From positions 38,348 through 102,347 of IMG/VR virus record IMGVR_UViG_3300032304_000826: a stretch of 64,000 nt of DNA; one strand, written 5' to 3'. The translations under genes were made by a program, and so were the position numbers. Position 1 is the stretch's first letter; the number at the start of each line of letters is the position of its first letter. The notes under the pieces are model-generated. The model had not been told where the DNA came from and made no database searches. It saw nothing but the letters and a program-made list of their open reading frames with translations. The DNA comes from a virus. Shown here piece by piece: positions 757 through 46,975 of the stretch.

Positions 757-2376
757 ATGAACATCTTAGGCATATCACCAAATCATGATAGTTCTGTATG
801 CCTACTCTCTGATGGCCGTATTAAATACTTTTCAAAAGAAGAGCGGCTATCTAGAGTAAAAAGAGCGGCTGACCCTAATTTAGCTACGCAAGAGGCCCTA
901 AAGTTAGGGCCTATAGATCAGGTTGTTTGGTGCCCCCCTACTCAAAATCCCGATTATCGAGATGAGTTTATAGGCGATTACTTTAAAGGCATGGAAGTAA
1001 CTGTTAATGACCTGTCTGATTACCACCACTTAACCCACGCAAGTTTAGGGTTTTACAACAGCGGGTTTACCGAGGCAGCCGTAGTTGTTGTAGACCGCAA
1101 TGGCTCTATCATGGGAAACTCATGTAGAGAGTCAGAGACTATTTTTATGGCCTCTTACCCAGCCACGTTTGATCAAGTATACAAAAGTTTTTGGATATAC
1201 GACAATACCGCACATCAAGAGGCCCTATTGTTTAAAGAAAGAAACCCAAAGTGTGAGGTAGATGTTAGGTCTATGTACGGAGTAGTTAAAGTCTACGAAA
1301 CTGCTACCGCGTTAATTAGACAACATGTTTTAGAAAATGGAAAAGTTATGGGTCTTTCTGCATATGGAAATAAAGATGCAGAGTTTGATCCGTTATTTTT
1401 TAGGGGAAACATACCCAACGATTACTACTTTGGGCATGAAGAAGTAACCAATCGAATTGCTACCCATCAAGAGTTACAGCTATTTGCTACAAATGTAGTA
1501 ACTCCAGAAAACTTTCAAGTATACGCAGACTATGCGTGGCAAGTTCAAAAGCAGACTCAAGACGCAGTCTGTTACCTAATCCAAAAAGCTATAGATAAAA
1601 CAGGTTCTAAGAATGTAGTTATTACTGGTGGCTACGGGATGAATGTAGTTGCCAACCATTATTACCTGACTAAATTCCCAGATATTAACTTTTTCTTTGA
1701 GCCTTTGGCTGATGACAGTGGAAACAGCATAGGTGGCGCTATGTTTATTCACAGGCTTCTTACTGGAGACACCTCTGTAAACCCTTTAAACACAACGTTT
1801 TTTAGTGGCAAACACCACTCATTAAAGAGTATTCATGGGCTACCAACACAAACCAAAGATGTTGCAAAGTTACTTGCCAACGGTAAAAGTATTGCTGTAT
1901 ACCGTGGGTTGGCTGAGGCTGGGCCCAGAGCGTTAGGCAATAGGTCTATCTTGTTTGATCCTAGGAATAAAGATGCCAAAGAGATTGTTAATAAGATTAA
2001 GAGACGCGAGTGGTACCGTCCATTTGCAGCTATGGTTCTAGAAGAAGATGCCCACATGTACTTTGATATGGGAGCAGTAACTTCAAGCCCTTATATGACT
2101 ATCTCATTTCCAGCAAAACAATACGCTGTAGATAACATTCCGGGAGTAATACATGTAGATAATACCTGCAGACTTCAAACAGTCTCTAAGTCAGATGGGT
2201 ATCTCTATGAGTTGTTGTTAGAGTTTAAAGCGCTAACAGGTCACGGAGTTATTCTTAATACAAGCTTTAATTTAGCGGGAGAGCCTTTAGTAGAAACTCC
2301 AGAGGAAGCAATTAAAACATTACGTAATTCAACTTTAAACCATGTATGGTTTGAAGAAAAAAACGTTTTAGTTTAA
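757..2376 (+). CDS. Carbamoyltransferase, NodU/CmcH/TobZ family
   Basis: Motifs HDSS, EERLSRVK, HHLTHA, GKVMGLSAYG, GPRALGNRS, KRREWYRPFA, HVDNTCRLQTV, LNTSFN. Confidence 0.92.
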   Translation: MNILGISPNHDSSVCLLSDGRIKYFSKEERLSRVKRAADPNLATQEALKLGPIDQVVWCPPTQNPDYRDEFIGDYFKGMEVTVNDLSDYHHLTHASLGFYNSGFTEAAVVVVDRNGSIMGNSCRESETIFMASYPATFDQVYKSFWIYDNTAHQEALLFKERNPKCEVDVRSMYGVVKVYETATALIRQHVLENGKVMGLSAYGNKDAEFDPLFFRGNIPNDYYFGHEEVTNRIATHQELQLFATNVVTPENFQVYADYAWQVQKQTQDAVCYLIQKAIDKTGSKNVVITGGYGMNVVANHYYLTKFPDINFFFEPLADDSGNSIGGAMFIHRLLTGDTSVNPLNTTFFSGKHHSLKSIHGLPTQTKDVAKLLANGKSIAVYRGLAEAGPRALGNRSILFDPRNKDAKEIVNKIKRREWYRPFAAMVLEEDAHMYFDMGAVTSSPYMTISFPAKQYAVDNIPGVIHVDNTCRLQTVSKSDGYLYELLLEFKALTGHGVILNTSFNLAGEPLVETPEEAIKTLRNSTLNHVWFEEKNVLV

Positions 2377-3314
2377 ATTTGATACCTAACAATTACCACG
2401 CCAGATCCACCGTTTCTACCGTTCGTAGTGTTAGTATTTCCTGCTTCACCAGTTCCGCCGCCACCGCCGCCTAATCCATTAGTTCCTGCAGTTGCTCTTG
2501 CTGAGTTAACGTTGTTAGACCCAAGTCCGCCACCACCAGAACCGCCATTAGGTTCTCGTTGCCCATCCCAAGAAGTTCCTCCACCGCCACCTGCGTAAAA
2601 TGTAGAGTTGCCAGAAATAGAGTACGCACGTCCTGCGCCCCCATCCCCACCACCAACTCCGTTTGCAGCGTTTCCGCCTGCTCCACCTGCTCCGCCTCCG
2701 CCACCAGTTGGGTAACCGTTACCTGAGGCCGCACCAGAGCCACCAGCGTTACCGTAACCTAAGCCACCACCAATATTTCCTTGAGTGGCTGCGCCACCCG
2801 CACCGTTACCGTAGTTTCCGCCGCCTCCAGATCCGCCGGCTAAACCTAGGCTATTTATTGACTCGCCTGACCCGCCACCACCGCCATTAGCAACAATGTC
2901 AGAGATACTTGAATTTCCACCATTCAAACCGTTACCAGCTGAGGTGTTGTCTCCACCATTACCTACAACAACAGAGTACGACGCTACTGGAAGTGATTTT
3001 GCTGAATGATACACAAGTCCACCGGCTCCACCGCCACCGTTGGTGTTGGACTGAGCGCCAGAGTTTCCTCCACCGCCTACAACTAGTATTTCTGCTGTAA
3101 GGGTTAGTGCAGAGTTGAAAAATGTATAGGTTCCGCCAGTTACGGCACCTGTAACAAACGTATGGGTTCTATACCCACCAGCTGTTACAACACTGCCACC
3201 AGTTATAGAAGCAGGATTTTGTCTTAGTGCTTCTGATATGGCAGCACCTACACCCACACCTTTATTTTCAGAGGTTGCACCAAAGGTTCCTCTCACGCTA
3301 CTTACAAAAGGCAT
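2373..3314 (-). CDS. Glycine-rich virion/fibre-tip protein
   Basis: YRTHTF, LVVGGGG, poly-Gly tracts, C-terminal GGSGVVIVRY; paralog of 7746-8609. Confidence 0.75.
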   Translation of the reverse strand: MPFVSSVRGTFGATSENKGVGVGAAISEALRQNPASITGGSVVTAGGYRTHTFVTGAVTGGTYTFFNSALTLTAEILVVGGGGNSGAQSNTNGGGGAGGLVYHSAKSLPVASYSVVVGNGGDNTSAGNGLNGGNSSISDIVANGGGGGSGESINSLGLAGGSGGGGNYGNGAGGAATQGNIGGGLGYGNAGGSGAASGNGYPTGGGGGAGGAGGNAANGVGGGDGGAGRAYSISGNSTFYAGGGGGTSWDGQREPNGGSGGGGLGSNNVNSARATAGTNGLGGGGGGTGEAGNTNTTNGRNGGSGVVIVRYQI

Positions 3315-3324
3315 TTACTTCTCC

Positions 3325-8613: not shown

Positions 8614-10692
8614 TTACCCCCAGTTTAAGTTAGCGGAGCCTAGTACGGTCCATGCGCTAGAAATACGAACTAGTGTAAATGTGAATACATCAATACGTCC
8701 AGCAACACTTGTTGGGGTTGGGGCCGCTGCCGCAGTCCATTTAATAGTTTGAGATGTTCCCGCAATAGTTAATGCGCTTGGAATATAGCCAGTTGCACCT
8801 TGGGTAACAAAAACGTTAATGGTCATAATCTTATTGTTATCAGTAGGCACGTTTGTAAGAGCCACTGTAAAGTTTGCAGAAGGTGCGCTAGCAATCCAGT
8901 AGATGTTACCTGTAGACCAATCGCAAGCTGCTGAGTTAGAAGTAATAGTTGTTGCTACTAATGCTTCACGCATTTCTTGAATGTCAACTGTTCCGCTTAG
9001 TGATACTAAACCCGATGCGGTTAGTCCACCAACCTGTAGATCCGCATAAGCAGCCCCAGCTTCCGCAAAGTTTACAGTTGTAGTTGGTTTAGTTGTAGCG
9101 TCCTTAAAGATTTTAAATACGCCATCAGAAGCGTCACGAACTGCACCGCCGTAGTATCTACGGGCAGCTACCGAGCTACTGCCTGACGCAGCAGCTGAAG
9201 ATACGTTTGCATTGGTTTTAGCATATGTAAATGTTGTTGAGGTAGGCACTGCAATAATTGAGTAGGTACCGTTAAATGTAGCATCTACGCCAGTTATAAC
9301 AGCCACATCTCCTGCACGATAGTTATGGCCAGCAGAGGTAGTAAGAGTTGCCACATTTGAAGTTAACGCTTTGTTAGTAATTGTGCTAACTAGCGCTGCA
9401 ATTGTACTTGCGTACTCAACTACTAAGCCTTCGTCAACAGCATCTGCTTGATTGCTTATACCAGAGAAGATCATAGGCGCAACAACTGCTAGGTTATCCG
9501 TAGTAGTAGCTCCTCCACCAAATGTGAGGTTACCAACGATAGACATATTACCTTCTACGTTGACGCTGCCTTGAATACCAACACCACCGACTACTGTTAA
9601 AGCACCTGTTGTAGATGAGGTAGATGGGGTATCAATTTCAATGTGTACGTTTACATCTGGGGTAATTGACATTTGCTCATTGTCAGAAGCTAAGCCTCCA
9701 GCAGCAAAAATAAGCTTGTTCTCACTACCTTTGTCACCAGTAGCAAATACAAGGTTACCCTTACCAGTAGTTCCTACAGGAGCTTCTAGGAAAATGTAGC
9801 CGTCGTTTGCGCCAGTAATTGTAAACTCGGGGTCGTTAAAGTTAGAGGATGTAATACCCATGTCAATGTAGCCAGCAAAGTCTGTACCATTATTTGCATA
9901 AGCAATGTAATCAGTAGATGAGTTTGTACCATTTCCTGAGTTTCTAAATGCAATTTGTGCAAAGTCATCATCTGCATCAATAGCATATACAGCAGCTGCG
10001 TTGGTATATCCAGGAATAGTGGTTATTGTTCCTACAGTTGCTTGTGAAGCAATATTTCCTGCAGTCTTATCAAAAGTAAAGGTATTTAAAGTAGGCGTAG
10101 CGGTAATTTCATATGTGCCATCAAACGCAGCGTCTGCTGGGCTAAGGGCAATAGTTACGAACTGAAACGGGGCAAATCCGTGTGCGGTAGATGTAGTAAT
10201 AGTCGCTACGTTAGAGGTCAAAGATTTTGTTTGAGCAGTCTTAGTAACAGTACCTAAAGTTTCAGCATCTGTACGTGCTCCAGGACCTACGTATAGCTCT
10301 CCCGCAGTTGAGCCAACATCAAGGTCTCCGGTTACTCCAAGAGTTCCAAAAGAGTTAGACCAAGAGGCAGCAGTTCCGTCTGTCTTTAGAAACTTACCGG
10401 CGTTGCCTGTTTGTGTTGGGACTTGGCTTACAGTTGCAAACTGAAATGCAGAGCCAGTTGTCTGTAAGAATTGACCGTTTGTTCCTGCTGTAGGATCTGT
10501 GTACCCATCAATCATCTTAGACCAGTAGGCTGTATCTGTTGGGGCGTTGCCCGCGGTAGCGCCAGTGTTGATATAGGCGTAAAGGTTATTAGTGTACTTA
10601 ACTACATCGTTAAGCTGGTATGTAGTGGCACCGCTATAGGTTCCCTTATAGGTAAAGCGAAGCTTACCTAAGTTAAAAATCTGAGCAGCCAT
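8614..10692 (-). CDS. Tail fibre-like protein
   Basis: Shares N-terminus (QIFNLGK), GNLVFATGDKG block and C-terminal LGSANLN domain with 3325-6222. Confidence 0.75.
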   Translation of the reverse strand: MAAQIFNLGKLRFTYKGTYSGATTYQLNDVVKYTNNLYAYINTGATAGNAPTDTAYWSKMIDGYTDPTAGTNGQFLQTTGSAFQFATVSQVPTQTGNAGKFLKTDGTAASWSNSFGTLGVTGDLDVGSTAGELYVGPGARTDAETLGTVTKTAQTKSLTSNVATITTSTAHGFAPFQFVTIALSPADAAFDGTYEITATPTLNTFTFDKTAGNIASQATVGTITTIPGYTNAAAVYAIDADDDFAQIAFRNSGNGTNSSTDYIAYANNGTDFAGYIDMGITSSNFNDPEFTITGANDGYIFLEAPVGTTGKGNLVFATGDKGSENKLIFAAGGLASDNEQMSITPDVNVHIEIDTPSTSSTTGALTVVGGVGIQGSVNVEGNMSIVGNLTFGGGATTTDNLAVVAPMIFSGISNQADAVDEGLVVEYASTIAALVSTITNKALTSNVATLTTSAGHNYRAGDVAVITGVDATFNGTYSIIAVPTSTTFTYAKTNANVSSAAASGSSSVAARRYYGGAVRDASDGVFKIFKDATTKPTTTVNFAEAGAAYADLQVGGLTASGLVSLSGTVDIQEMREALVATTITSNSAACDWSTGNIYWIASAPSANFTVALTNVPTDNNKIMTINVFVTQGATGYIPSALTIAGTSQTIKWTAAAAPTPTSVAGRIDVFTFTLVRISSAWTVLGSANLNWG

Positions 10693-14754: not shown

Positions 14755-14820
14755 GATTATTATTCTCCTGTAAGTTTGTGTTGGGGGCGGATTTTAAGGC
14801 CCGCCCCCTAACGGGTTAAA

Positions 14821-21576: not shown

Positions 21577-22196
21577 GTGTTCTTCTTTATCTGAAGGGCT
21601 CTTGCGCCTCTGTAGGCCAGGTACCGTAGTTTAGGGGGTAGGTCTGAAGTATTGGCAGGTCCTCTAGGTTTAAAGTTTAAATGATCTGATATGTAAGCCC
21701 ACTTACTACTTAAACGTTTAAAGTCTCTCCACTCGTCAATACTAACGTCATAATAGTTATAAATTGTAGAGTCTCTAAATACTAGCGTTAGTACTGATCT
21801 TTCTGGGGAGTAAGACGCCGCAACAGTTCTTGGCCTATCTATCATACTGGTTTGTGTTGGGACCTCTGTAAAATCCTCATCATCAAAAGATGCAGGGCTA
21901 TATGCAGGGTCTTCTTCTGGATAGATAGCAAGGGCATCGTCGCCAGCTTTATAGGGCCCAGTTTGGTCAATGTTGTACCCAGCGCCTCTAGCGTCAATGT
22001 CTTTGTCTATATCCGACCCAAAGGTATCTAAAACCTCTGCGAAGTCATATCGGCCCTTTTCGTAAGCCTTACGAACATTTGCTGGCAAACCGTCTAAATA
22101 CTTTTGCTGGTCTACTTGATTTCTTACACTACCAATCGCAGATCTTGCTTTTCTGGCAGCTATTTGTGCGGGAGTTAGTTTTTTTCTTTCTGCCAC
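21573..22196 (-). CDS. KTSC-domain protein
   Basis: Y.PE...L.LVFRDS.IYNYYDV...W..F...SK..YI pattern. Confidence 0.65.
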   Translation of the reverse strand: MAERKKLTPAQIAARKARSAIGSVRNQVDQQKYLDGLPANVRKAYEKGRYDFAEVLDTFGSDIDKDIDARGAGYNIDQTGPYKAGDDALAIYPEEDPAYSPASFDDEDFTEVPTQTSMIDRPRTVAASYSPERSVLTLVFRDSTIYNYYDVSIDEWRDFKRLSSKWAYISDHLNFKPRGPANTSDLPPKLRYLAYRGARALQIKKNT

Positions 22197-27430: not shown

Positions 27431-27446
27431 GTTTGTGTTGGAAAGC

Positions 27447-34141: not shown

Positions 34142-34161
34142 GTGTAACGAAAGGAAACCAA

Positions 34162-34710
34162 ATGACTACTCAGTCATTGTTCGACCAGTCCGTAGTGGCT
34201 GCTGCTAATGTCCGTGGTGCTCGTGGCGAGGAGCGTGAAATTGAGCGCCTTGCCAATGAGGCCATAGCCAATGGGTGGGGTGCGCCTATCCCTGCCAGTA
34301 TCTACAGCGACCTTGCTGTAGTTGCCAAGAAGGATGGGACAGAAGTGGTGGAAGTATCACCACTTCAGTTTGCCCACGCCTTCTACTTGGTTCGTACCTA
34401 CGGGTACAAGCCTCGTGATGCCCGCCGTATCGCCAAGCGATTCGGTATGGAGTTGGATGGTGTGTATACATCCGACACAGCACAGGTGGTTCGTGCCATC
34501 ACCACTATGGAAGAGCAATTCGTTGACGATAAGGAATCAGTCCTTATCCCAACCAGCATTGCTGCCATCAAGTCCCGTGTCGCTACGCTTAAGAAGCGTA
34601 TGAAAGACGGGGCTGTATCAGATGCCGACCTTCAACAGTTGGCATCTATAAGCGAAGAGATCCGTGATCTCTCCGTTGCCACCACCCCATCACTGGTGGT
34701 AAGCGCGTAA
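34162..34710 (+). CDS. First gene of the putative early block, unknown function
   Basis: GAAAGGAA RBS precedes ATG 34162 (ORF track starts 34102). Confidence 0.7.
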   Translation: MTTQSLFDQSVVAAANVRGARGEEREIERLANEAIANGWGAPIPASIYSDLAVVAKKDGTEVVEVSPLQFAHAFYLVRTYGYKPRDARRIAKRFGMELDGVYTSDTAQVVRAITTMEEQFVDDKESVLIPTSIAAIKSRVATLKKRMKDGAVSDADLQQLASISEEIRDLSVATTPSLVVSA

Positions 34711-34719
34711 TACTCTCTC

Positions 34720-35070
34720 GGCTACTGCCTTCCTAGCCGCATAGCCTGTGTCAGTCCGACCAGGTTATCGGCTAGGGGGTAGTGCTGTTATCAGGGTATT
34801 AGGGGAAGTCAAGGGCTAAGCCAATAGTCCTTGGCCTCTCAACTCTACACGGTGCTACCTTCCCCGTACCGTGTAGGGCTGAGGGGTTCATACCCCTTAC
34901 ATCAGAAGATACGGCGATACCTGTGGGAATCAGGAGACTGTTAGGCAATCCCGAAGTACACCCTAACCGCTAATGGCACGAAGATAACTACTCTGTTCTG
35001 CCTTCCACAATGGGGGGTGGGTATGCCTATGTGTACCAACACAAACCGTATGCCTGCCCCCCATTTCTCC
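34720..35070 (+). ncRNA. Candidate multi-hairpin structured RNA
   Basis: No ORF; at least four long stems whose imperfections are mostly G-U on the plus strand. Confidence 0.6.
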
Positions 35071-35598: not shown

Positions 35599-35808
35599 GT
35601 GGAAGGCACATCAAGCACGGACACCATCCAGTTGGTAAGTATTGTTAGAGGCATTTGATGTGGTCTCGTCTAACTTCCGCTTGGCGCAGTTATGTATGTA
35701 ATATTCACATCTGCATACATTGATTTACTCGTCCCCCTGAAAACGGCCGTATAAAGTCCCTCGCTTGGTGTGCCTCTCACCCTCTATCTGAGGGTAATAA
35801 CTAGGAGG
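35599..35808 (+). ncRNA. Closing-stem cassette 2 with hairpin and RBS
   Basis: GTGGAAGGCACATCAAGC pairs with GCTTGGTGTGCCTCTCAC; then ACCCTC/GAGGGT hairpin and AACTAGGAGG. Confidence 0.65.
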
Positions 35809-35814
35809 AAGAAG

Positions 35815-35976
35815 ATGGAAAAAGAATGTGCAGTAATCCATTGCACCAATACCAATCTCGTCTATAGCGGTACTGATGCATTCCAGTTAGGCGGTATCCC
35901 CACCGAAATGTATTGCCGTCCTTGTGCGATCGCTTACTATGTGATCAGCGAAACAATGAAGGCCATCAATGCCTGA
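35815..35976 (+). CDS. Small Cys-containing protein
   Basis: ATG after AGGAGG; CAVIHC..CRPC. Confidence 0.6.
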   Translation: MEKECAVIHCTNTNLVYSGTDAFQLGGIPTEMYCRPCAIAYYVISETMKAINA

Positions 35977-36274
35977 GCGTGCCAACACAAACACGCCCAC
36001 CTACGCCAACATCTGCGCTAGGTTGCGCTATGTACGCCAACTCAAGGGCTGGACGCTTGATGAGGCCGCACAAAAGTCTAATGGCAAGCACAAAGCCAAT
36101 GTAATCGGTTCCTATGAACGCGGACAGCGGTCAATCTCAGTCAAGAAACTCATTGAGCTGGCCCGCCTGTATGACGTACCTGTTACCGATTTCTTTGGCA
36201 TCCCCGATCAAAATGAAAAGTCACAGGCACTCATTGACCTGTTGATTGACCGCCTACACGCACAGAAGGGATAA
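35969..36274 (+). CDS. XRE HTH regulator, BldD N-terminal-domain-like
   Basis: KS.G..KA.V.GSYERG.R..SV..L.ELA..Y.VPV matches the BldD DNA-binding domain pattern. Confidence 0.8.
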   Translation: MPERANTNTPTYANICARLRYVRQLKGWTLDEAAQKSNGKHKANVIGSYERGQRSISVKKLIELARLYDVPVTDFFGIPDQNEKSQALIDLLIDRLHAQKG

Positions 36275-37030: not shown

Positions 37031-38002
37031 ATGGAAGGTGAGATCATCTTCTACAACGGGTTCAACCTATTGGTTGACCTTATCATCGCGGGTGCTGTGT
37101 TCTACTTCACCCGTCGCTTTATGTACCGAGCAGGTTGGCACGATGGATACAGCGATGGCTTGTCTGATGTTCAAGACGGCCTTGTATACCTGGAAGAACG
37201 AGATGGTGTGCTTGAATGGATACCAAACATCGCTCCAACACAAACAACCACCGACCGCCCCGCTTTATTCGTAGTGCCTGAGGCTAACTAATGATTAGCA
37301 AGAATGGCATACCCGATGATGAGCTGTATGTCATCAAAGTGTACGAAGACGGTACCAACGGCAAGGCAGGCTATTTCGAGTATAACAATGCTCTAGATGC
37401 AGTCAATGCGTTCAATAAGTTCGTTGATCTTGGCGATGCCAAAGAGACACGGGCTGTGTATTTAATCGAGCCCAATGAAAAGATTCACACACGTATGTTC
37501 ATGCGTGGTGAGAAGGGAGTACTGACATCATGAAACGAAAAACAGTCCTAGTTAGTATCTATTATCGTGGAGAAGAGCCTGAGATTGAGGGTCTTGACAC
37601 ATTCTATCTATCTAACGCAATTGAAAGGGCAGTTAAATTAAACAACAAGACAAGTGATGTCTTTGATGTAGCCATAGATGAGACAAAGCCGTGGCTATTC
37701 TCAAATAGTCGTTGGTATACCAAGTACGTATTTAAATTAGCACGCTTATGACTATGCAACGCATCGGTCGTTATGAATTTAACGACAAAGGCACAGCAGT
37801 GTGGGTAGAGACAGATATAGATGTACCAGAGGGGCAAATCATTGTATTTGATGAGTTTCCAACAGGTGCTTGGGCTGACCCTAAGTTCTTATCTAACATA
37901 CTAGACATAATGAATAAGGCGTGCAATGAAAACAAAGACGATATCGAAGACATCCTTATGGATATAGAACTAGAAAAACTTATCTACGATACCAAGAACT
38001 AG
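37031..38002 (+). CDS. Four coupled small hypothetical ORFs (37031-37291 with TM helix, 37291-37533, 37530-37751, 37748-38002)
   Basis: Overlapping stop/start codons, RBSs. Confidence 0.6.
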
Positions 38003-38007: not shown

Positions 38008-38081
38008 GCGCTGTTAGCTCAGTTGGTTAGAGCCCCGAACTCATAATTCGGTCGTCGTAGGTTCAAGTCCTACACAGCGCA
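38008..38081 (+). tRNA. tRNA with CAU anticodon (Ile2-like or elongator Met), CCA not encoded
   Basis: GCGCTGT/ACAGCGC acceptor, TAGCTCAGTTGGTTAGAGC D arm, CCGAA-CTCATAA-TTCGG, GTAGG-TTCAAGT-CCTAC. Confidence 0.93.
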
Positions 38082-38234
38082 CGGCACACTTCAAGAGGAG
38101 GGAGTGTCTTTGGTCTGACAAGACCTAAGGTAAAACATGGCCCGTGAGCATCGGGGTATACCTGCTACCTGTCCTGAGCATGACAAGGCTAAACGGCTCA
38201 ACACAAACAAACCCGACACACAGAAAGGCAAACC

Positions 38235-38732
38235 ATGGGAGCAAAAACAAACTCTCTCAAAATCAGGCGACTTGACCTCCTTGAAGCACTTGAGGAACGC
38301 TATGCCGCGTTGACAAAACAAAAAGATGAGTATGAAAAGTTAGACAAAGAGTATAACCTCGCATCTACTAAATACGACAAAGATGTGAAAGCATACGAAA
38401 AGCGAATGGATGACTTCTTACGTGGCTGCACAGTTGGCGGAGAAGTTCATTGGTCTTCAAGCAGTCGTAGATGGGGTAGTGACGAACAGTATTACAGAGT
38501 AGTTTCTGAGGTGCATGTTCCCCACAAAGCTGTGGTTAAAGCTATTGGACCTGAACCTGAACGTCCAACAAGCACACCTACTCCTTACTTTCTACGATCA
38601 CGCATGGGTAGAGGCTATGCAGTAGAGCCTTCAGTCTATGAGTCTGTTTACCAAGCAATCCAGTTGCTACATATGTCAGATGATGAGACCGTCTCAGCAT
38701 CTATGTATCAATTAGCATTGGAAGTATTGTAA
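38235..38732 (+). CDS. Hypothetical coiled-coil protein
   Basis: GAAAGG RBS. Confidence 0.65.
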   Translation: MGAKTNSLKIRRLDLLEALEERYAALTKQKDEYEKLDKEYNLASTKYDKDVKAYEKRMDDFLRGCTVGGEVHWSSSSRRWGSDEQYYRVVSEVHVPHKAVVKAIGPEPERPTSTPTPYFLRSRMGRGYAVEPSVYESVYQAIQLLHMSDDETVSASMYQLALEVL

Positions 38733-39506: not shown

Positions 39507-39675
39507 GTTGGGGCAGAGACATAATGATTGGCCAATGTGCGTGGGTATCCTATGTGGACACTATTCCCACTCAGTAACTAATCAAAACACATGAGACTAA
39601 ATGCAATTAAAGCGACACCTCGGGGCAACCCACGTGCGTGCAGGATACCGTTAAACGTGGTATCTCTGTCCCAAC
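39507..39675 (+). ncRNA. Closing-stem cassette 4 (whiB leader)
   Basis: GTTGGGGCAGAGA pairs with TCTCTGTCCCAAC. Confidence 0.6.
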
Positions 39676-39704
39676 ACAAACATTCACACAACATAGGAGG
39701 TTAT

Positions 39705-39998
39705 ATGCCAGTACCAGCAGCGTTACCTAAACCAATCATGGATAACTGGAAATGGCAAGAGGAAGGCCTGTGTCGCTTTGAAAGCCCCGACCTTTTCTTT
39801 TACGATGACAATGAACGCGGTGAAACAAGATCCGCGAGAGATGCATTAGCCGTATCAATTTGTAATAGATGTCCAGTAGTAAATACCTGTCTTGAACACG
39901 CTATCACAGTGCCAGAACGACACGGCATCTGGGGCGGTAAGACACAGAACGAACTAGAGATATTGATTCGTAAACGGAAACGTTCAGCGAATCGATAG
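39705..39998 (+). CDS. whiB: WhiB-family Fe-S regulator (WhiB3/WhiD-like)
   Basis: W.W...C..LFF....ERG..C..CPV...C..HA..GIWGG; ATG after AGGAGG. Confidence 0.92.
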   Translation: MPVPAALPKPIMDNWKWQEEGLCRFESPDLFFYDDNERGETRSARDALAVSICNRCPVVNTCLEHAITVPERHGIWGGKTQNELEILIRKRKRSANR

Positions 39999-40600: not shown

Positions 40601-40641
40601 GCGTGAGTGGCACACTTTGAGGTTCGAGTCCTCTACACGCA
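40601..40641 (+). ncRNA. tRNA minihelix-like element (acceptor and T arm only)
   Basis: GCGTG..GAGG-TTCGAGT-CCTC..CACGC-A with a canonical T loop. Confidence 0.5.
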
Positions 40642-40699
40642 CGGCGGGCGACTACATTGGGTAGTTGCCTTAGCTGCAAAGAAAGTGGAAGGACAGATT

Positions 40700-42109
40700 A
40701 TGAAAATAGCTGTTTTCGTAGAAACGTATACGCCGACTATGGGAGCTGATCATCGTCAAGTAATGATGATTCCTCATAACGACACAGTCCGTGTCTTTTC
40801 TCGTTTGAGCGATGGCAATAAAGGTTATGGCAATCGCTGGGATGAATCAGACATAGAAACTGTAGTGAACGCTATGGACTCAAGTGAAACCATCACTTGT
40901 ATTCCATCAGGTGTTCGACTCACTGCTAAAGATATTGAGGCGCTTGACCTTAAAGGTTATGCACCAGTCCTCATGACTAAAGCGGTCAACGCACACCTTA
41001 AGTCACTACCGTTTGATGAAGAGACAGACGCTGCAGAGCGTATCTGTGCTCTTTATCAAGACGTATCTGTTCAGAGTTCTAGCCTTGAAGATCTAATCAT
41101 TGATCTTCGTAGCCAGGCTCCGGCATCACCGTTCCTTCCGCAGTCTGCTTCAACACAAACATCCACGGCCAATAACCTTGATGAACTACCTCGTGTAGCA
41201 CTCGCAAGTATCCCCCCAATGGATCGCGCTAAAGCCTATATCAGTCGTGACATCGTAGGTATTCAAGACCTCGAAGTTTACGACAAGGCTCGCGCTAACA
41301 AGTTTGATGTGCTTATCTACGGGCCAACCGGTCCAGGTAAGACATCATCCGTAGTTGCATGGGCTGCATCACGGAAGCTACGTATGGCAACTGTATCTGG
41401 TAACGCTGCACTCGAACCAAGCCAACTCATCGGTAAGTATATTCCCGATGGCAAAGGTGGCTTTGTATGGATTGACGGCCCAGTAACAGACGTTGTACGT
41501 AATGGCGGTGTTCTATGTCTTGATGAGGTTAACTTCATCAGTCCTAAGATCTATACCGTCTTGTATTCGTTGCTTGATGACCGCCGTTGTTTAATTCTTC
41601 TCGACCATATGGGCGAGACTGTAGAGGCTCATCCAGACCTCACAATCTTTGCGACTATGAATCCAAACTACATTGGCACTACGCCTTTGAACTTTGCATT
41701 CCGCAATCGCTATGTCGTACAAATCCCTTGGGACTATGACGATAAGGTCGAAGACAAGCTTGTGAAGTCACAGGCACTCAAGATTCTAAAGAATCAATTG
41801 CGTGCTGAGGCTAACAAGGGTGAGTTCGAGACACCAATCTCAACTAACATGCTGATGGAGTTCGAAAAGCTCGTCAAGGTGTTCAGCTTTGAGTTTGCAG
41901 TTGAGAACTTCATTGCCCACTTCGAACTAGAAGAACAAGACAAGGTGCGCCTTGTATTCACTACACATGAATACAATCTGAAGTCTGATTTTGAACTAGT
42001 TGAAATACTAGATCAAGATAAGGGTGAAGATAGTGCTGGCCTCGGAGAAGGCATTATTGCCGAGGTTGAGAACTGGTTGACATCAAACAACACTCCAACT
42101 AATCCATAA
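40700..42109 (+). CDS. MoxR/CbbQ/CobS-type AAA+ ATPase
   Basis: GPTGPGKT, WIDGPV, LCLDEVN, ATMNP, AFRNRY; start reassigned to ATG 40700. Confidence 0.88.
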   Translation: MKIAVFVETYTPTMGADHRQVMMIPHNDTVRVFSRLSDGNKGYGNRWDESDIETVVNAMDSSETITCIPSGVRLTAKDIEALDLKGYAPVLMTKAVNAHLKSLPFDEETDAAERICALYQDVSVQSSSLEDLIIDLRSQAPASPFLPQSASTQTSTANNLDELPRVALASIPPMDRAKAYISRDIVGIQDLEVYDKARANKFDVLIYGPTGPGKTSSVVAWAASRKLRMATVSGNAALEPSQLIGKYIPDGKGGFVWIDGPVTDVVRNGGVLCLDEVNFISPKIYTVLYSLLDDRRCLILLDHMGETVEAHPDLTIFATMNPNYIGTTPLNFAFRNRYVVQIPWDYDDKVEDKLVKSQALKILKNQLRAEANKGEFETPISTNMLMEFEKLVKVFSFEFAVENFIAHFELEEQDKVRLVFTTHEYNLKSDFELVEILDQDKGEDSAGLGEGIIAEVENWLTSNNTPTNP

Positions 42110-42118: not shown

Positions 42119-44080
42119 ATGGGATACCACGATGAGATAGACACTGGGTATCACGGTGAGACTCGAACAGAAGAGAAACAAAAGCGGGCTCTACGTCTAG
42201 GCACACTTGCAAGAGTGTATCAAGGCGCAGACCGAATTCTTACTGGCGATCCACTAGTGGTAAACATAGTTGACAGCGGACCAGCACCTGCTTGGTCCGA
42301 TGGCGCATCCATAACTCTCAATGCTGAATACATCAATGAGATGGACTTGGAAACGCTAGTACAAATTAACGGCCTCAATTACCATGAGCTAGCCCATCAT
42401 TTGTACACACCACGTAAAGGTACTCCGTTAGTACAGTGGGTTATCGAGAATGATCTATTCCAATCGTTCAATATATTGGAAGATCAACGTATCGATACCT
42501 TGCTGTGTGCACGTTATCCATCAATCATGCCATTCTTGGAAGCTACAGTCTTACGGTATCTAGCCGATAAGCCTGAAGAAGCCATTGGTAATTACTTGGT
42601 GGTGCGTGGTCGTAAGTATCTACCAGTTGAGGTACGGCAAGGCTTTAGAGATATCTTTATAAGGCCTGACCTAATACCAGCCATCTGCAGAATAGTTGAT
42701 GAGTATCGAGTGCTCGCATTCCCTAGGGATTATGCGCGAGCGCAAGAACTTATCAAACAACTGCAAGATGAAGTATTAGTTCACTTGCCTATCCCTTGTT
42801 CAGGCGGCATATCACAATGCGGCCATAGGTCTCCTATACAAAAAGGCAGACCAGAACCTGGCAAGATGCAGGAGTATGACTCAAAGAGAGCTAAAGGAAT
42901 GGGCGTCAGTGAAGACGAGTACGTACCTAGAACCTCTCAAGAGAAGCAACAGCTTGATGAATTGCTAGATGAAGTAGACAGAATGTCAACTGCTCCCGGC
43001 AATGTTAATGACAATGAAGATGGAGAAGATCCTTTAGGTAAAGATCCTCTTGCTGATCTAAACAATCAGATTAAAACATCTCAAGATGCGTTAGCCAAGC
43101 GTGAGGCTTCAATATACTCAACACCATCTGTTGGTCAAGGACATATAGATAGTGTGGGAGGAATCCCAGATGATCTACAAATTACGCTAAACAATGCCCT
43201 GAACAAGGTGCATGAGCGTAAGGATGTTCTAGCCGATGTTAAGCGCAAGCAAAGCATTGTAATCGGTGGTGATGATAAAGGCGGAGAAACTGGTAGGCCT
43301 GGCAAGTTTGATAAGGCAGACGTACCTAGTGCCGCAATGGTTGCTTATCGTAAGTTCGCACACGAACTTCAAAAGCTTCGTGATGACGCAGAACCATTCT
43401 GGGTTAAGGAGATGCCTTCCGGCAAACTCAATGTACCTAGACTTATGCGTGGCGAGGTTGAGGTAGGCAAAGCCTTTGACCGCTGGACTGAACAAGACGA
43501 CAGCACAGATATCGAAGCAATCATCTGCGTTGACCGTTCAGGCTCAATGGGCAGTGGCAATAACGATCAGATGGCATCCATTGCCTGCTGGACTATCAAG
43601 CGTGCCTTAGAGCATATAGATTGTCCAGTAACAGTGTATGCATTTGACGACAAGACTGAGGTGGCTTACTCTCGTACAGAGAAAGCAGACAAGACTCAGT
43701 TTAAATTCATCTATGGCAGCGGTGGTACAGAACCATACGAGTCTCTAATCCTAGCGGAAAAGACTCTTATGTCCTCTACCCGTAGCAATAAGATGTTGTT
43801 CATCATTACTGATGGTGTGTTCAACACAAACAAAAATGATGAAGTCATAGCGCGTATGGCAAAACGAGGAATCCTAACCTCTCTTGTACTAATCATGAGA
43901 ACCAAGGACTACTTAGATGCTAAACGATCCAATGAGGAGGCCATTGCCGAAGGCAGGTCTGCACGTTGGGAGCTAAGACATGGGGCAGAAATATTCGGTA
44001 ACGTTAATAGCGCTGCCGATCTAGTCCCCCTAGCCCGTGCAATCGTAACCGGAGCAATCCGCAAGAAATCAAGGAGGTAG
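42119..44080 (+). CDS. vWA-domain partner protein (CobT-like) with N-terminal HExxH
   Basis: HELAHH, NILED, MIDAS DRSGSM, GGT, ITDG. Confidence 0.85.
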   Translation: MGYHDEIDTGYHGETRTEEKQKRALRLGTLARVYQGADRILTGDPLVVNIVDSGPAPAWSDGASITLNAEYINEMDLETLVQINGLNYHELAHHLYTPRKGTPLVQWVIENDLFQSFNILEDQRIDTLLCARYPSIMPFLEATVLRYLADKPEEAIGNYLVVRGRKYLPVEVRQGFRDIFIRPDLIPAICRIVDEYRVLAFPRDYARAQELIKQLQDEVLVHLPIPCSGGISQCGHRSPIQKGRPEPGKMQEYDSKRAKGMGVSEDEYVPRTSQEKQQLDELLDEVDRMSTAPGNVNDNEDGEDPLGKDPLADLNNQIKTSQDALAKREASIYSTPSVGQGHIDSVGGIPDDLQITLNNALNKVHERKDVLADVKRKQSIVIGGDDKGGETGRPGKFDKADVPSAAMVAYRKFAHELQKLRDDAEPFWVKEMPSGKLNVPRLMRGEVEVGKAFDRWTEQDDSTDIEAIICVDRSGSMGSGNNDQMASIACWTIKRALEHIDCPVTVYAFDDKTEVAYSRTEKADKTQFKFIYGSGGTEPYESLILAEKTLMSSTRSNKMLFIITDGVFNTNKNDEVIARMAKRGILTSLVLIMRTKDYLDAKRSNEEAIAEGRSARWELRHGAEIFGNVNSAADLVPLARAIVTGAIRKKSRR

Positions 44081-44084
44081 AATC

Positions 44085-45462
44085 ATGGCATACTCTAAAC
44101 TCATACTGGACGCATTAGTGCACAACCCAGATGACAAAGATGTATCACGCATGGTAGTGATTATAAACGAAAGCGCTGTCTATCAAGACTTCGCTGACTT
44201 TCATAAGCATGACCCAGAATGGTGGGAAGCTCTTGCTAACAAAATATATGAGACATCTGCATATCCAAAGATGGCGTTAGCCCCACTTACAATAGCCGCA
44301 AGTCAATACCTCTGCGATCCAGAGCATGAACTTGAGGATAAAATCGTTCCCCTAATATCAAAAGCAATGGCGATAAATGACGATCATCAACCGACTCAAC
44401 GCCTCGCTAAAATCACTCTAGCACTCAAGATGGGTGGAATGGAAAGACCAGATGTTAAAGACATCCGGGATAACGTTCTACCTAAAGTCCTCTCCCTGGT
44501 TAAGCAACTAGACAAAAAGTTAGCGTTAGCTCAGGAGGAATAATGCAAGAGTACAAAGAAACACCTGTGTTTTATCGTAGGTGGGCTCGTGTACGTAACT
44601 GGCAAGAAGCAGCGAAGTGGATAGGGGGCGGACGAAGTTCTATAGACCGTCCCCTGTATCACCACAGCTTAGGCATAGCTTACGTAGACCCCGCAAATAA
44701 AAATTCAGACATAGTATTAAACTATCGCTGGAGACAATTACACCGCAAGTTCCAACAACCTGGCGAATACATAGTCAGGTTTACAAAAGATGGTAGAACT
44801 TTTATAAGCGCATCTGTAGGATACAGCAGAGCACAGAGACGCATTATGGAAGAATACGCTAATCTAGTTGACGTTAGATGGGATTACTATAATAAGGCCC
44901 TAGTCATACGACAACCAGATGACCCAATAAACAGCAGCAAAGGATTACGAAAATGCCGCAGATGTGATGGGTCCAAGAAAGAAATCTATACCTGTTCAAT
45001 GGGTTTTTGGACTAGACCAGACCCACAAATGCCCTCACATAATATATCTCGTGAGTGCGGTCATTACGAAGTAGGTGATCTACGTCGTGATGCCCCACAC
45101 CTTATTACAACAGCCTGTGTACGTTGTGAAGGTAAGGGAAAAACAGTACCTCTATCAAGAATACAAAGCTTTAAGTGGCGTCCGAATGAGCACGGTGCTT
45201 TTAAACCGTTAGAGGTAAACCCATCAACCAGCAAGTTAATACTAGAGGAGGAACTATGTACGTCGTAATAGATGTGATAACGTCTACATTAATAGGGCCA
45301 TTTGACGAAGAGCAAGAAGCTGTTGACTTTCAGCTTCATGCCTCTGACTTACTGGCTGATGTAGATGCTGGCTCAGAGCTAGAGATACACGAGCTATTCA
45401 CCCCACAAGACTGGGCATTCCAGAACCTTGATGAGGAGATAGCTTCTACCGCATCAATCTAG
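44085..45462 (+). CDS. Three hypothetical ORFs (44085-44543; 44543-45268 with CxxCxGxG Zn motifs; 45256-45462)
   Basis: Coupled ORFs with RBSs. Confidence 0.6.
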
Positions 45463-45507
45463 GATAGGCATCAACACAAACAACCGCAAACAAACAGGGA
45501 GGCAAAT

Positions 45508-46134
45508 ATGGAAAAAGTATGTAGAAACATAGTAACTATGTACTCTTCTGTTGAACGGATCAACGAAATCGTAGACTCACTTAAGACTGAGGATAGAGTT
45601 GTATCTTTCAACAAGCTTCTACCCACTCCACCAGAGTTAGTAGAAGCAGCTAAAACATTAACCTTAACGCCGTCATTAGTTGAGCGTTTTGGTGCTATGG
45701 ACGTAGGCAGCTGGCGTTTGAAGAACTGGGGCTGTCCCATAGACACAATGACTTCTGCGATAGTAGACGAAGCTGAGCTTGACTTTGCTTCTAAGCTTCC
45801 GCCAAAGTTATTAGATAAGCTAAGCGAAGAAGATAAGGCAGAAGCAAGATCATTTGAAAAGGCAGTTGCAATCTCGTTTGAAACAACCGAGACTCCAAAT
45901 GCTTTTGTATTAGCCCTATCAGAAAAGTTTCCGGACATGCGTATGCACTACTCGTACGATAGTGATTCGGAAGATGTCTCGGGATGGCTCGTCGCCTCAA
46001 ACGGCGAAGTGCATACTCACGAGCATTACAATAATTGCCTAACGGTGATTAAGCTACACATCGAGTCATTTAGCAGAGATCACAGCAGCCGGCTGACGAC
46101 TCTGTTAACTGAGGAAGATGAAGACTCAAACTAG
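45508..46134 (+). CDS. YubB/DUF1281-like protein
   Basis: FNKLLPTP.EL, WRLKNWG, ISFET..P, LSEKFPD motifs. Confidence 0.6.
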   Translation: MEKVCRNIVTMYSSVERINEIVDSLKTEDRVVSFNKLLPTPPELVEAAKTLTLTPSLVERFGAMDVGSWRLKNWGCPIDTMTSAIVDEAELDFASKLPPKLLDKLSEEDKAEARSFEKAVAISFETTETPNAFVLALSEKFPDMRMHYSYDSDSEDVSGWLVASNGEVHTHEHYNNCLTVIKLHIESFSRDHSSRLTTLLTEEDEDSN

Positions 46135-46453
46135 TAGAAGGGGAAGTAACAAATGTCACAGCAAGACCCTTTCATCTCAATCCAGGTAACGTTCGAATGT
46201 CGCCTGTATCACGGCAGATTAAAAACTCCACTAAGCCTGGAGAATAACTTTCTGCTATACATACGCGACCAATTCACTACAGGCTGGCTTGACAGAAACC
46301 AATTGCGACCCGGGGAAGATATTTGCATTATAGATGCAAAGATTATTTCCGAATAGTTTGACACTTGACGGGCCCCTAGGCAATGCAGCCGTGCCGTATT
46401 GCCTAGGGGACTTAAGAACCCTAGTAGAGGAAGGAGTTCAAAGAAAGTATATC

Positions 46454-46975
46454 ATGGTGAATACATTCCTGCCTTATGCCGATGAAGTAAAGACAGCAAG
46501 GGCACTAGACGATAAACGCTTGGGTAAGCAACGTGTAGAGAGTCTACAAATATTAAAAGCTAACCTAGGTATGACACTCGGGTGGAGAAACCACCCAGCT
46601 GCAATAATGTGGAGAGGTCATGAGGGCCTCCTTTGCGTATACAATTTACGTATATGCGAAGAGTGGAAAGATCGTGGGTACCAAGATACGGTCTCAACAC
46701 AAACACAAGACATCATGAACACCTTAGGACCAACAGCCTTTAGACGGCCTTGGTGGTGGGGTAATCTTGATTTCCATAGAAGTCATCAATCAAACCTGAA
46801 CAGAAAAGATCCTCATCATTACAACTTTGATGTTCCTGATGACCTGCCATACCTATGGCCAAAAGAAAAAGGAATACTACTAACGAAGGAAGAATCACAT
46901 GCGATCAAAGCTCAATTACTCATTCAAGCTCGCAAAAAATCAAGAGAAGAGCGGAGCTTGGCTGGCAACGGTTGA
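46454..46975 (+). CDS. Pyrimidine-dimer glycosylase-like protein (MSMEG_6728 family)
   Basis: TFLPY, LDDKRLGKQRVE..QIL, WRNHPA..MW.GHE, HRSHQSNL.RKDP..Y; preceded by a 14-bp hairpin at 46375-46410. Confidence 0.8.
   Translation: MVNTFLPYADEVKTARALDDKRLGKQRVESLQILKANLGMTLGWRNHPAAIMWRGHEGLLCVYNLRICEEWKDRGYQDTVSTQTQDIMNTLGPTAFRRPWWWGNLDFHRSHQSNLNRKDPHHYNFDVPDDLPYLWPKEKGILLTKEESHAIKAQLLIQARKKSREERSLAGNG

Follow-up and report, generated by a model that had tools for sequence, protein, structure and literature searches.

An exact, gene-directed 12-nt word as a selected control signal in a family of uncultured freshwater actinobacteriophages

RfaH recognizes the ops site on the non-template strand, the 5' half of boxA is rich in U, and the RegB sites of phage T4 and the RNase III sites of phage T7 serve temporal control or mRNA processing. 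In stoperator/repressor systems the subclusters show concerted changes of the word, as does one relative (G016) of the phage analyzed here. Among the closest described systems are the stoperators of Cluster A mycobacteriophages (L5 gp71 / TipsytheTRex repressor; PMC9283540, PMC6550527), and a stoperator, at 13 bp (PMC9283540), is about the same size as the 12-nt word that we describe below.

We analyzed a window of 64,000 nt, taken from a virus record of 102,347 bp (bases 38348-102347) with a 123-bp overlap between its ends. The phages that bear the word form a large family of uncultured freshwater phages of ~100 kb that infect actinobacteria, the host being assigned on the grounds that the phage carries three WhiB genes. 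Their nearest cultured relative is Streptomyces phage BRock, in which no such word is present. The phage looks lytic, as judged by an integrase search that found neither a tyrosine nor a serine recombinase in it. The full word, CCAACACAAACA, has the form Y-C-R-ACACAAAC-A; it is 12 nt long, asymmetric and free of any symmetry. Its copies in the window, together with the terminator between the two converging arms, are:

1844..1853, plus strand: word copy cCAACACAAACc in the inverted carbamoyltransferase gene (757-2376, plus), in gene sense and against the surrounding minus-strand arm
10409..10418, minus strand: word copy CCAACACAAACA within a 692-aa ORF (8614-10692, minus), sense
14774..14783, minus strand: intergenic copy, 19 nt before the GTG of ORF 14389-14754
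21850..21859, minus strand: word copy in a KTSC-domain ORF (21573-22196, minus), sense
27431..27440, minus strand: 3'UTR copy, 7 nt past the stop of the PASTA-domain ORF 27447-28490
35037..35046, plus strand: first short-arm copy, in a long hairpin's loop; the hairpin is in a stretch free of ORFs behind the first gene
35983..35992, plus strand: short-arm copy where ORF 35770-35976 meets ORF 35969-36274 (HTH_3)
37236..37245, plus strand: short-arm copy towards the 3' end of ORF 37031-37291, sense
38199..38208, plus strand: short-arm copy between genes, with tRNA-Met (38008-38082) upstream of it and the ATG of ORF 38235-38732 26 nt further on
39672..39681, plus strand: short-arm copy in the leader of a WhiB gene (ORF 39591-39998; Whib domain from residue 55)
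41151..41160, plus strand: short-arm copy in the AAA_5 ATPase gene 40607-42109, within its hypervariable linker
43822..43831, plus strand: short-arm copy in the VWA gene 42119-44080, encoding FNTNK
45472..45481, plus strand: intergenic copy, 10 nt past a stop; the ATG of ORF 45508-46134 follows after 26 nt
46695..46704, plus strand: last short-arm copy, in the pyrimidine-dimer glycosylase gene 46334-46975, sense
47596..47641, no strand assigned: bidirectional terminator with a 20-bp stem, between the two converging arms
47641..47650, minus strand: terminal long-arm copy, variant CCGACACAAACA, adjoining the convergent terminator hairpin

The 10-mer core, CAACACAAAC, is present in 14 exact copies in the window, every one at the position and on the strand given by an earlier sequence-only reading, and in 18 copies in the 102-kb genome, the four copies beyond the window all being on the minus strand. 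It is the most over-represented 10-mer of the genome. Against the 14 copies in the window, dinucleotide shuffles give an expectation of 0.20 (maximum 2), much as the earlier estimate of 0.1-0.2 had it; Markov models of order 1-5 predict 0.08-0.41 copies against the 18 in the genome, and synonymous-codon shuffles (n=300) leave 1.9 sense copies in ORFs (maximum 6) against 13 observed. The enrichment thus survives the Markov and codon backgrounds, under which its disappearance had been named beforehand as grounds for giving up the idea. The sequence dependence is all-or-none, in that exact copies are enriched and one-mismatch copies are not; the single one-mismatch copy reported earlier, CGACACAAAC at 47641 (minus strand), is indeed there. 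At 89 non-redundant sites the base before the word is C (71), T (13), G (3) or A (2), and the preceding pyrimidine claimed for the word holds for the 14 window copies and fails for two of the four extra copies, which follow G or A. The site logo carries no information outside the 12-mer, with no conserved flank or partner element; the word in it is C/A-only and not A/T-rich, and the complementary strand, TGTTTGTGTTGG, is G/T-rich.

The word is kept letter for letter in at least 30 related IMG/VR phage contigs; it is unchanged in G001-G010, in G013 and in 25 short-arm loci, and full-length relatives hold 5-18 copies each. The conservation check proposed with the sequence-only reading thus came out in its favor, in relatives whose surrounding early genes mostly differ: the gene content of the early arm is almost entirely replaced between relatives with the word retained, and early proteins are only ~50% identical while the word is invariant. 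In the AAA_5 linker, the codons CCA ACA CAA ACA are identical in eight relatives whose AAA_5 proteins are only 51-57% identical to that of the window, which itself has TCA ACA CAA ACA. In the VWA gene, relatives carry the copy at three other positions or just 3' of the gene, so that the word occupies four independent positions (independent gains) in two reading frames. The copy at 14774..14783 comes directly after a GC hairpin that follows the major capsid gene (14821-15897), a context kept in G002 and many portal loci, and the copy at 27431..27440, 4 nt before an intrinsic terminator hairpin, has its context conserved in G002 and G004. In two close relatives (L248 and L249), homology resumes 7-8 nt upstream of the copy at 39672..39681, and ~550 bp without the word replaces the 30-nt spacer that holds the copy at 45472..45481. 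The terminal copy at 47641..47650 is exact in close relatives and has a counterpart in every relative examined; on the minus strand of the adjoining terminator (47596..47641) the word stands before the hairpin and a U-run after it, and the U/G-rich tail on the plus strand is formed by the word's complement. G016 has a variant word, CC(A/G)AC(G/A)TAAACA, in the same layout, with seven co-oriented short-arm sites and an inverted terminal site.

In the short arms of nine genomes, copies co-oriented with transcription outnumber antisense copies by ~71:0; the long arms of relatives hold ~35 co-oriented copies and 6 genuine antisense copies, and the region around the portal gene 51 and 3. The sense lock that had been asserted without exception accordingly stands in the short arms and is not absolute in the long arms of relatives. 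Overall, the exact word is found sense:antisense at roughly 8:1, against only 1.5-2.5:1 for neighbors with 2-3 mismatches; compositional bias would yield co-orientation of only ~2.5:1, and the lock therefore holds against the antisense counts. The orientation flips exactly at the divergence point of the arms. In two independently inverted genes, the carbamoyltransferase gene and a secreted muralytic gene in L040 and L041, the word runs with the gene and against the arm; neither of the two showed a copy oriented like the arm.

Copies occur about once per kilobase in the short "early" arm, the first ~900 nt into the arm, and gaps in the early block run from 946 to 2671 nt, a wider range than the 1-1.7 kb put forward before. 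Copies are spaced more evenly than expected at random: the coefficient of variation is 0.23-0.35, where random placement gives ~0.85 (six arms, P<=0.005 in each). Density is greatest in the terminal 13-kb arm, with 9-12 copies per arm, whereas 38 kb of the genome, comprising the replication and nucleotide-metabolism genes of the distal long arm, are free of the word despite a copy at the very end of that arm. The divergent promoter region between the arms has no copy, even when up to two mismatches are allowed. About 60% of copies are inside translated ORFs, where they are located in hypervariable protein linkers, and many others occupy spacers between a stop codon and a ribosome-binding site, 19-35 nt before the start codon. 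Near terminators the word lies 0-7 nt upstream of the hairpin and within the transcript (~12 contexts), and almost never just downstream.

We also evaluated RNA structure and possible readers. Flanking stems of at least 5 bp number 13, against 8.3+/-2.6 in shuffled pairings, with no conserved adjacent hairpin, and display in loops is restricted to some first-in-arm copies. The unpaired probability of the word is ~0.72, and 0.73 when the word is transplanted to random sense positions, so its accessibility in RNA does not exceed that due to its composition. Metatranscriptome contigs run through several copies, which weakly hints, these being contigs only, that there is no obligatory stop at the word in environmental samples. 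By sequence comparison, L5 gp71, a repressor of the monomeric type with an HTH and a Stoperator domain, finds no counterpart in nine family genomes (best tblastn E 0.76; no phmmer hits in 1266 ORFs). The short arm likewise yielded no DNA-binding protein that is conserved. None of the proteins scanned has a recognized RNA-binding or RNase domain. The analysis lends no support to the binders suggested by the sequence-only reading: among relatives with the word, neither the BldD-like HTH protein nor the 34162 gene is conserved, and SpoVS also occurs in BRock, which is without it.

The word is under nucleotide-level selection, depends on orientation, is evenly spaced and tracks gene direction. Being exact, gene-directed and evenly spaced in fast-changing early genes, it is a selected control signal, and the relatives, the placement in hypervariable linkers and the two inverted genes bear out the earlier view of a cis signal that is tied to transcription, orientation-dependent and not driven by the encoded peptide. 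The best reading of its mechanism, to which we assign a probability of roughly 0.4, is that of an orientation-dependent, stoperator-like elongation-control site read on DNA. The word would be the cis recognition site for one sequence-specific trans-acting reader that works only along the direction of transcription, the site being read on DNA while the host RNA polymerase passes through. Either an asymmetrically bound protein could form a one-way roadblock, as at mycobacteriophage stoperators, or recognition could, as at ops sites, take place on the non-template strand within the transcription bubble. In both cases the word would act as a distributed elongation checkpoint that (i) shuts off or insulates the early arm within ~1 kb of any polymerase position, (ii) marks a few points in the late operon and (iii) halts polymerases where each arm ends, before antisense entry into the other arm.

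Reading on DNA rather than RNA, with a stop or a pause as its effect, is what we infer from this pattern. Placement within ORFs (~60%, and the four VWA positions) poses no difficulty for a site on DNA and is less readily reconciled with an RNA site that is stably bound. The reader would be phage-encoded, as suggested by the variant word of one relative, G016. A system silencing the whole genome is not what we propose, given that the phage looks lytic and that 38 kb are without a copy.

Several observations sit less easily with reading on DNA. The geometry upstream of terminators is more in keeping with an RNA element than with a roadblock aiding termination, and the divergent promoter region lacks an operator-like copy. 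Invariance at ~50% protein identity is more to be expected of a conserved host reader than of a phage repressor that evolves fast, and the late genes of relatives hold six antisense copies.

Nearly as likely as the DNA reading, though doubtful in its own right, is a tag at the RNA level, that is, a binding or cleavage site in the sense transcript for a sequence-specific RNA-binding protein or an endoribonuclease. Such a tag, present at least once per ~1 kb of early RNA and per major late transcript, could serve RegB-like inactivation of early mRNA, intercistronic processing, or as an antitermination or stability mark. The word is on the sense strand even in inverted genes, and its position just upstream of terminator hairpins would keep it in the 3' end of the RNA; many copies lie in the spacers 19-35 nt before start codons, and the copy after the capsid gene follows a stabilizing hairpin. 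A C/A-only word is intrinsically unpaired (~0.72), but real sites are no more accessible than the transplanted word and the flanking stem is not conserved. All-or-none sequence dependence is typical of enzymatic recognition, and the dense-early, sparse-late pattern resembles that of T7 RNase III sites; however, with ~60% of copies in translated ORFs, cleavage would destroy the conserved AAA_5 and VWA sites, several copies are spanned by RNA contigs, and the proteins scanned offer no recognized RNA-binding or RNase domain.

An oriented DNA site unrelated to transcription appears improbable. In a Chi-like form, the TGTTTGTGTTGG strand would tame a nuclease of the host that processes DNA ends and enters at the termini of the genome, and in a replication form the word would serve a primase or mark the leading strand; in both, the sense lock would be only apparent, as both arms are transcribed inward from the ends. 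Exact, all-or-none recognition as for Chi, the G/T-rich complement, the flip at the divergence point (which in BRock is the physical genome end), the density peak in the terminal 13-kb arm and the independence of gene boundaries are all compatible with such a site, and a host reader would be in line with a word that stays invariant in diverged phages. Yet the word follows the gene and not the arm in the two independently inverted genes, its 12 nt far exceed any known Chi, the distal 38 kb of the long arm lack it except at the very end, and its preference for positions upstream of terminators would be left unexplained.

We consider slightly less probable still that the word is a compact promoter or element for a host RNA polymerase redirected by the phage, for example via the three WhiB-like proteins, or for an unrecognized phage polymerase. 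The phage does carry three WhiB genes and large ORFs of no recognized family, the word is sense-locked with many copies 19-35 nt upstream of start codons, and the G016 variant resembles promoter/polymerase co-evolution. A promoter is at odds with copies 0-7 nt before terminators that point into the converging arm, with conserved copies midway in long genes, with a word that is not A/T-rich and with the lack of a -10- or -35-like partner at any distance; sigma-70 region 2 was not found in the phage, nor was a T7-type polymerase, the latter absence being weak because the control search was silent.

A crossover point for cassette shuffling, acting through microhomology or as the site of an unknown recombinase, is the least probable reading: it would explain the mosaic early arm, in which almost all genes differ between relatives and the word persists between them, and of the ~12 points where homology to L248 and L249 breaks off, two are located 5-8 nt upstream of a copy, with breakpoints within 20 nt of a copy several-fold over-represented (26 arms), but most breakpoints are away from copies, alignment ends are biased to any conserved island, the recombinase search was negative, copies at terminators or within conserved genes play no part in cassettes, and strict orientation is explained no better than by a regulatory role.

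Finally, we compared the word with known systems. Uptake sequences (USS/DUS) and Chi are likewise exact, all-or-none words that occur about once per kilobase; uptake sequences share the unusually even spacing and the placement in tolerant protein segments and beside terminators, and Chi is G/T-rich like the complement of our word. Both are, however, signals of host chromosomes. Uptake sequences occur about equally in both orientations with no lock to genes, where the lock here is strong, and Chi, of 5-8 nt, follows replication, whereas our word follows gene direction; orientation set by DNA ends or replication is countered by the gene-sense copies in the inverted carbamoyltransferase and muralytic genes, two independent cases. 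A phage promoter with a second element and a cognate polymerase or sigma factor found no match, with nothing conserved outside the 12-mer and with PF04542 and PF00940 absent from the phage (the control for the latter being silent). The T4 RegB (GGAG) and T7 RNase III sites are similarly on the sense strand, dense early, sparser late and often between cistrons, but they are a 4-nt word and double-stranded RNA hairpins, respectively, and not an exact 12-nt single-stranded word, for which no nuclease reader was recognized among the proteins scanned. The ops element is a sense-locked 12-nt word independent of RNA structure, as is ours, but normally occurs as one leader-proximal copy per operon, with a pause signal.

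The two kinds of site offered by the sequence-only reading, a nut/boxA RNA site and an L5-stoperator-like DNA site, are still the leading candidates, and each fails some defining features. Like boxA (lambda nut, rrn antitermination leaders), which acts only in the sense transcript, the word is linear, of ~12 nt, and ends in AACA(A); its 5' part is C/A-only where boxA is U-rich, no boxB-like hairpin accompanies it, and there are 9-12 copies per arm instead of one or two. The untranslated, promoter-proximal position of nut/boxA, ahead of the terminators that such a site overrides, is not seen either, many copies being translated (~60% in ORFs), the first copy not being promoter-proximal, and copies lying directly before the final terminators of both arms. 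The differences from stoperators are the apparently lytic and integrase-free lifestyle in place of a temperate one, the failure to find a gp71-like protein by sequence comparison, the lack of a copy at the early promoters, which in stoperator systems are overlapped by operator copies, the absence of the word from 38 kb of middle genes, unlike stoperators, which occur throughout the prophage, and the placement of ~60% of copies in ORFs with even spacing and invariance over much deeper divergence. With stoperators the word shares its occurrence in actinobacterial phages, as asymmetric 12-13-bp words in many copies and in both arms, an orientation that tracks transcription, frequent placement in short intergenic spaces, and lineage-specific variants.

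The 10-mer CAACACAAAC, here called the word, occurs 14 times in the window, exactly at the positions and on the strands listed by the sequence-only reading, whereas 0.20 copies are expected from dinucleotide shuffles; four more copies, all on the minus strand, bring the genome total to 18. By k-mer count the word is the top 9-mer and the top 10-mer of the genome, and nearly all occurrences of its constituent 7-9-mers fall within full copies. One-mismatch copies are not enriched (6 observed, 5.3 expected). Markov models of order 1-5 predict 0.08-0.41 copies, and synonymous-codon shuffling of all ORFs leaves 1.9 sense copies in ORFs (maximum 6) against the 13 observed. The enrichment, which the sequence-only reading had been prepared to give up if it vanished under a codon or Markov background, persists and thus outlasts the controls proposed there.

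To define the unit, the contexts of 113 copies, drawn from nine genomes that were complete or nearly so, were reduced to 89 non-redundant ones. Outside the 10-mer, information is confined to C (or T) on the 5′ side and A on the 3′ side, and no second conserved element was found within 40 nt on either side. Since the flanks are otherwise uninformative, the unit is a free-standing asymmetric 12-mer, CCAACACAAACA, in which T is tolerated at position 1 and G at position 3. Full-text searching of the literature with the word and with its complement yielded primers and unrelated sequences only; we found no earlier description of the word itself, and freshwater WhiB-encoding actinophages are already known as a group (PMC10914622).

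The window covers bases 38348-102347 of a 102,347-bp virus record. The two ends of this record overlap by 123 bp, and the assembly is therefore circular or permuted. Its genes form two transcribed arms, with the following landmarks (window numbering unless prefixed with G000, the source phage genome):

34102-47590, plus strand: short arm (13.5 kb)
88 kb, minus strand: long arm, starting back-to-back with the short arm and running round the circle to meet it again
47596-47641: bidirectional terminator with a 20-bp stem, where the arms converge
45256-45462, short arm: 68-aa acidic protein
G000:C1:419-643, G000:C1:9587-9775 and window 39753-39953: three separate WhiB-family genes

The short-arm genes are small and mostly without an assignable family; those identified encode an HTH_3 protein, WhiB, an AAA_5 ATPase, a VWA protein, a pyrimidine-dimer glycosylase and tRNA-Met. 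The long arm proceeds from miscellaneous and lysis genes through terminase, portal, capsid and tail to replication and finally nucleotide metabolism, where ribonucleotide reductase and a DpdA-like transglycosylase are found. The latter, a queuine tRNA-ribosyltransferase of 497 aa (49925-51418, minus strand), is kept in all relatives and in the cultured Streptomyces phage BRock, and hints that the phage DNA may carry 7-deazaguanine modifications. Among the genes at the start of the long arm (32458-33776, minus strand) are those for an HSP20-family protein and for a 188-aa protein that is 71-90% identical in most relatives and matches a proteasome subunit weakly. Two large minus-strand ORFs have no Pfam or PHROG match: 24852-27371 (839 aa), found in no more than about half of the relatives, and 29504-31321 (605 aa), unique to the source phage. 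The three WhiB genes suggest that the host is an actinobacterium; contig scans with the WhiB and carbamoyltransferase sequences gave no host match. No integrase, serine recombinase or sigma-70 region 2 was detected in the phage, nor was a T7-type polymerase, although the positive control of that last search was silent and the absence is weak.

The short arm contains nine copies of the word, and the first 50 kb of the long arm contains eight and, in an inverted gene, one more; the final 38 kb of the long arm lacks the word except for a variant copy at its very end. Across genomes, about 71 of 71 short-arm copies are co-oriented with transcription, long arms hold about 35 co-oriented and 6 opposed copies, and the surroundings of the portal gene at 80 loci hold 51 and 3, respectively. 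For neighbors of the word with two or three mismatches the sense-strand excess is only 1.5-2.5-fold, too small for composition to account for the orientation lock. Two independently inverted genes, the carbamoyltransferase gene of the window and a secreted muralytic enzyme gene in two related contigs (L040 and L041), where the word lies just 3′ of the signal peptide, carry the word in the sense of the gene and opposite to the arm; no arm-oriented copy was found in an inverted gene. These events, two in number, favor a reading linked to transcription over one linked to the arm, to genome ends or to replication. The antisense copies of the relatives (G003:18939, G007:31973, G003:37426, G003:14825, G002:41780 and G002:48544) fall in late genes including terminase; four of the six are less than 150 nt from a gene start, and two occupy the same place in orthologous genes. 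A guide-RNA function was rejected, as a target of C and A only needs the exact complement and the genome holds no sense-strand copy of it.

IMG/VR contains hundreds of relatives (586 confirmed portal matches). All ten genomes or large fragments searched contain the exact word, in 1-18 copies each, against approximately none of a reversed control word, and it ranks first among the 10-mers of most of them as well. Each short arm carries a run of 4-12 co-oriented copies; some sublineages have only 2-4 per arm, so that a density of one per kilobase is not universal. The gene content of the short arm is almost wholly unshared; the recurring exceptions, at only about 50% identity, are AAA_5, VWA, the 68-aa acidic protein, the glycosylase and a few more. 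Proteins kept in every relative include AAA_5, VWA, the three WhiB proteins, the 68-aa acidic protein and small proteins encoded at 51409-63716. BRock, the nearest cultured relative (portal 58% identical), has the same two arms, with its physical ends at the point of divergence. It contains neither the word nor an analogous one, its top k-mers being tRNA arms and ribosome-binding sites, and no convincing alternative word was found in L260 and L262, two contigs with few copies.

One contig, G016, is a genuine member of the family (AAA_5 54%, VWA 46% and glycosylase 52% identical) that lacks the canonical word. Its short arm instead carries seven co-oriented copies of CC(A/G)AC(G/A)TAAACA, 876-2064 nt apart, with one further, inverted variant copy at the arm end. 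The word form in this contig is CCAACGTAAACA, and all sites have T at position 7, where every other lineage has C, a concerted change that argues for a reader whose specificity can shift. In a further contig, L250, four of the six sites read CCGACACAAACA. The IMG/VR matches listed include no other contig of the T-variant lineage, and the T variant thus rests on G016. Nor was any unrelated multi-copy carrier among the matches listed in scans with CCAACACAAACAAA and the variant CCAACGTAAACAAC; these were mostly single chance occurrences.

The sequence-only reading had held that the word is not peptide-driven, and the comparison bears this out: all three reading frames, intergenic sites and variable linkers carry it, and an origin in peptide or low-complexity sequence was rejected for the actinophage family. 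An unrelated 321-kb jumbo phage with 33% GC (G011/G012) encodes giant proteins with Thr/Pro/Gln repeats in C/A-only DNA that mimic the word 21 times (G011:C1:35001-55000 and 140001-156000); here, and in the tandem arrays of contigs L169 and L170, the word derives from Thr/Pro/Gln repeats, and the 14-mer scan picked these matches up falsely. In the source phage the strand-biased words that rank next in frequency, CCAGTTGGTCC and similar, come from collagen-like Gly-X-Y repeats in tail-fibre genes (3325-6222, minus strand, and elsewhere).

Selection at the nucleotide level is best seen in two short-arm genes. In AAA_5 the word lies within an indel-rich, unalignable linker, and its codons CCA ACA CAA ACA are identical in eight relatives whose proteins are 51-57% identical to that of the window; the window copy, TCA ACA CAA ACA, differs at the tolerated first base only. 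In VWA the word takes four different positions and two reading frames among lineages (PTQT, PNTNK, PPTQTH and FNTNK), and in two lineages it is just 3′ of the gene or missing. The VWA copies are independent gains that keep a copy nearby, not at one inherited site. The coefficient of variation of the spacing in six short arms is 0.23-0.35 against approximately 0.85 for random placement (P ≤ 0.005 for each arm), with no gap below 579 nt. Together, the observations establish the word as an exact, one-way cis signal whose orientation follows the gene and whose regular recurrence is under selection. The word is selected strongly enough to mould the linkers of proteins.

Intergenic sites account for about 39% of the copies, far above the non-coding share of the genome (about 6%). 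Three arrangements recur: (i) stop codon, 0-7 nt, word, 5-20 G-poor nt, ribosome-binding site and start codon; (ii) stop codon, word, 0-7 nt and intrinsic terminator hairpin; and (iii), 3′ of the capsid gene, hairpin, word and ribosome-binding site. In every genome a long-arm copy is placed against the convergent terminator, where its complement forms the U/G-rich tail for the opposite direction. Among strong terminator calls in eight genomes, approximately 8 of 45 have the word or its complement alongside (manual table count; three flagged upstream and five more from the other strand), and a general terminator element was rejected on this proportion. Stems enclosing the word are no commoner than in shuffled pairings of flanks, and its unpaired probability is 0.72 at real sites and 0.73 after transplantation to random sense positions. 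The best complementarity to the rrnH operon of E. coli, which is not the host, is 10/12, in a variable part of the 23S, and is uninformative.

We also compared assembled contigs of four metatranscriptome runs (X6-X9). Contig breaks fall at 39588/39665, 41131 and 45467/45501, where comparison with the relatives L248 and L249 shows strain indels, and are therefore uninformative on RNA ends. In place of the 30-nt spacer at 45467-45498, which holds the copy at 45472, these two closest relatives have about 550 bp that lack the word (L248:14852-15402), and the edges of this replacement explain the breaks nearby. The ORF-poor, palindrome-rich segment 40027-40603, 5′ of AAA_5, has the highest RNA-contig depth of the arm in three of four runs (X6 146, X8 92, X9 53); in X7 the tRNA bin leads and the segment has a depth of 37. 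From the segment to the terminator at 47596 depth remains high. The pattern suggests that a strong promoter lies inside the arm and that a leader or non-coding RNA is abundant. Over the first short-arm gene (34115-34813; 202 aa, no family, close relatives only), high-depth contigs end before the first copy of the word and depth then drops approximately 10-fold, suggesting an attenuator after this gene.

Our leading reading, with a probability of roughly 40%, is that the word is read on DNA during elongation, as a stoperator-like one-way roadblock or through recognition of the non-template strand. It is favored because most copies lie inside translated ORFs, because size and asymmetry fit a monomeric two-domain DNA binder, because copies close both arms, and because a variant word occurs, a feature shared with Cluster A phages (PMC9283540). 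Against it, neither an operator-type copy nor a relative of the L5 repressor gp71 was found, the phage appears to be lytic, the word is missing from the middle region, and it stands consistently upstream of terminator hairpins. That last position, with the UTR contexts of copies, leaves an RNA-level tag or cleavage site nearly as likely as reading on DNA. Among about 50 proteins scanned against Pfam or PHROG families, none stood out as a candidate reader.

Somewhat more doubtful is a previously undescribed kind of signal, a "ruler" tag: an exact one-way 12-nt mark due about every kilobase along early transcription units. Such a tag might be read on nascent RNA or on the non-template strand by a conserved host or virion factor needing periodic re-engagement, and could serve polymerase processivity, label phage RNA as self so that a shut-off nuclease spares it, or meter early-gene decay. 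Selection on spacing would then be strong enough to write the word repeatedly into disordered protein linkers. We consider a Chi-like or replication-oriented site improbable, a promoter slightly more so, and a cassette crossover site the least probable of these, the excess of homology breakpoints at the word being modest and prone to alignment bias.

WhiB-encoding phages of the present type are abundant and active in lakes (PMC10914622, PMC6802176) and have no cultured host; the word offers a sharply defined handle on their gene regulation and a practical marker that recognizes the family and orients the early arm in metagenomic fragments. The identity of the reader would show by what means a lytic actinophage insulates its early genes or sets their timing, and would be a test for one-way control of the stoperator type outside the temperate mycobacteriophages. 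The known one-way control words of phages work in a similar manner, but the word described here fails several defining features of each of those families.
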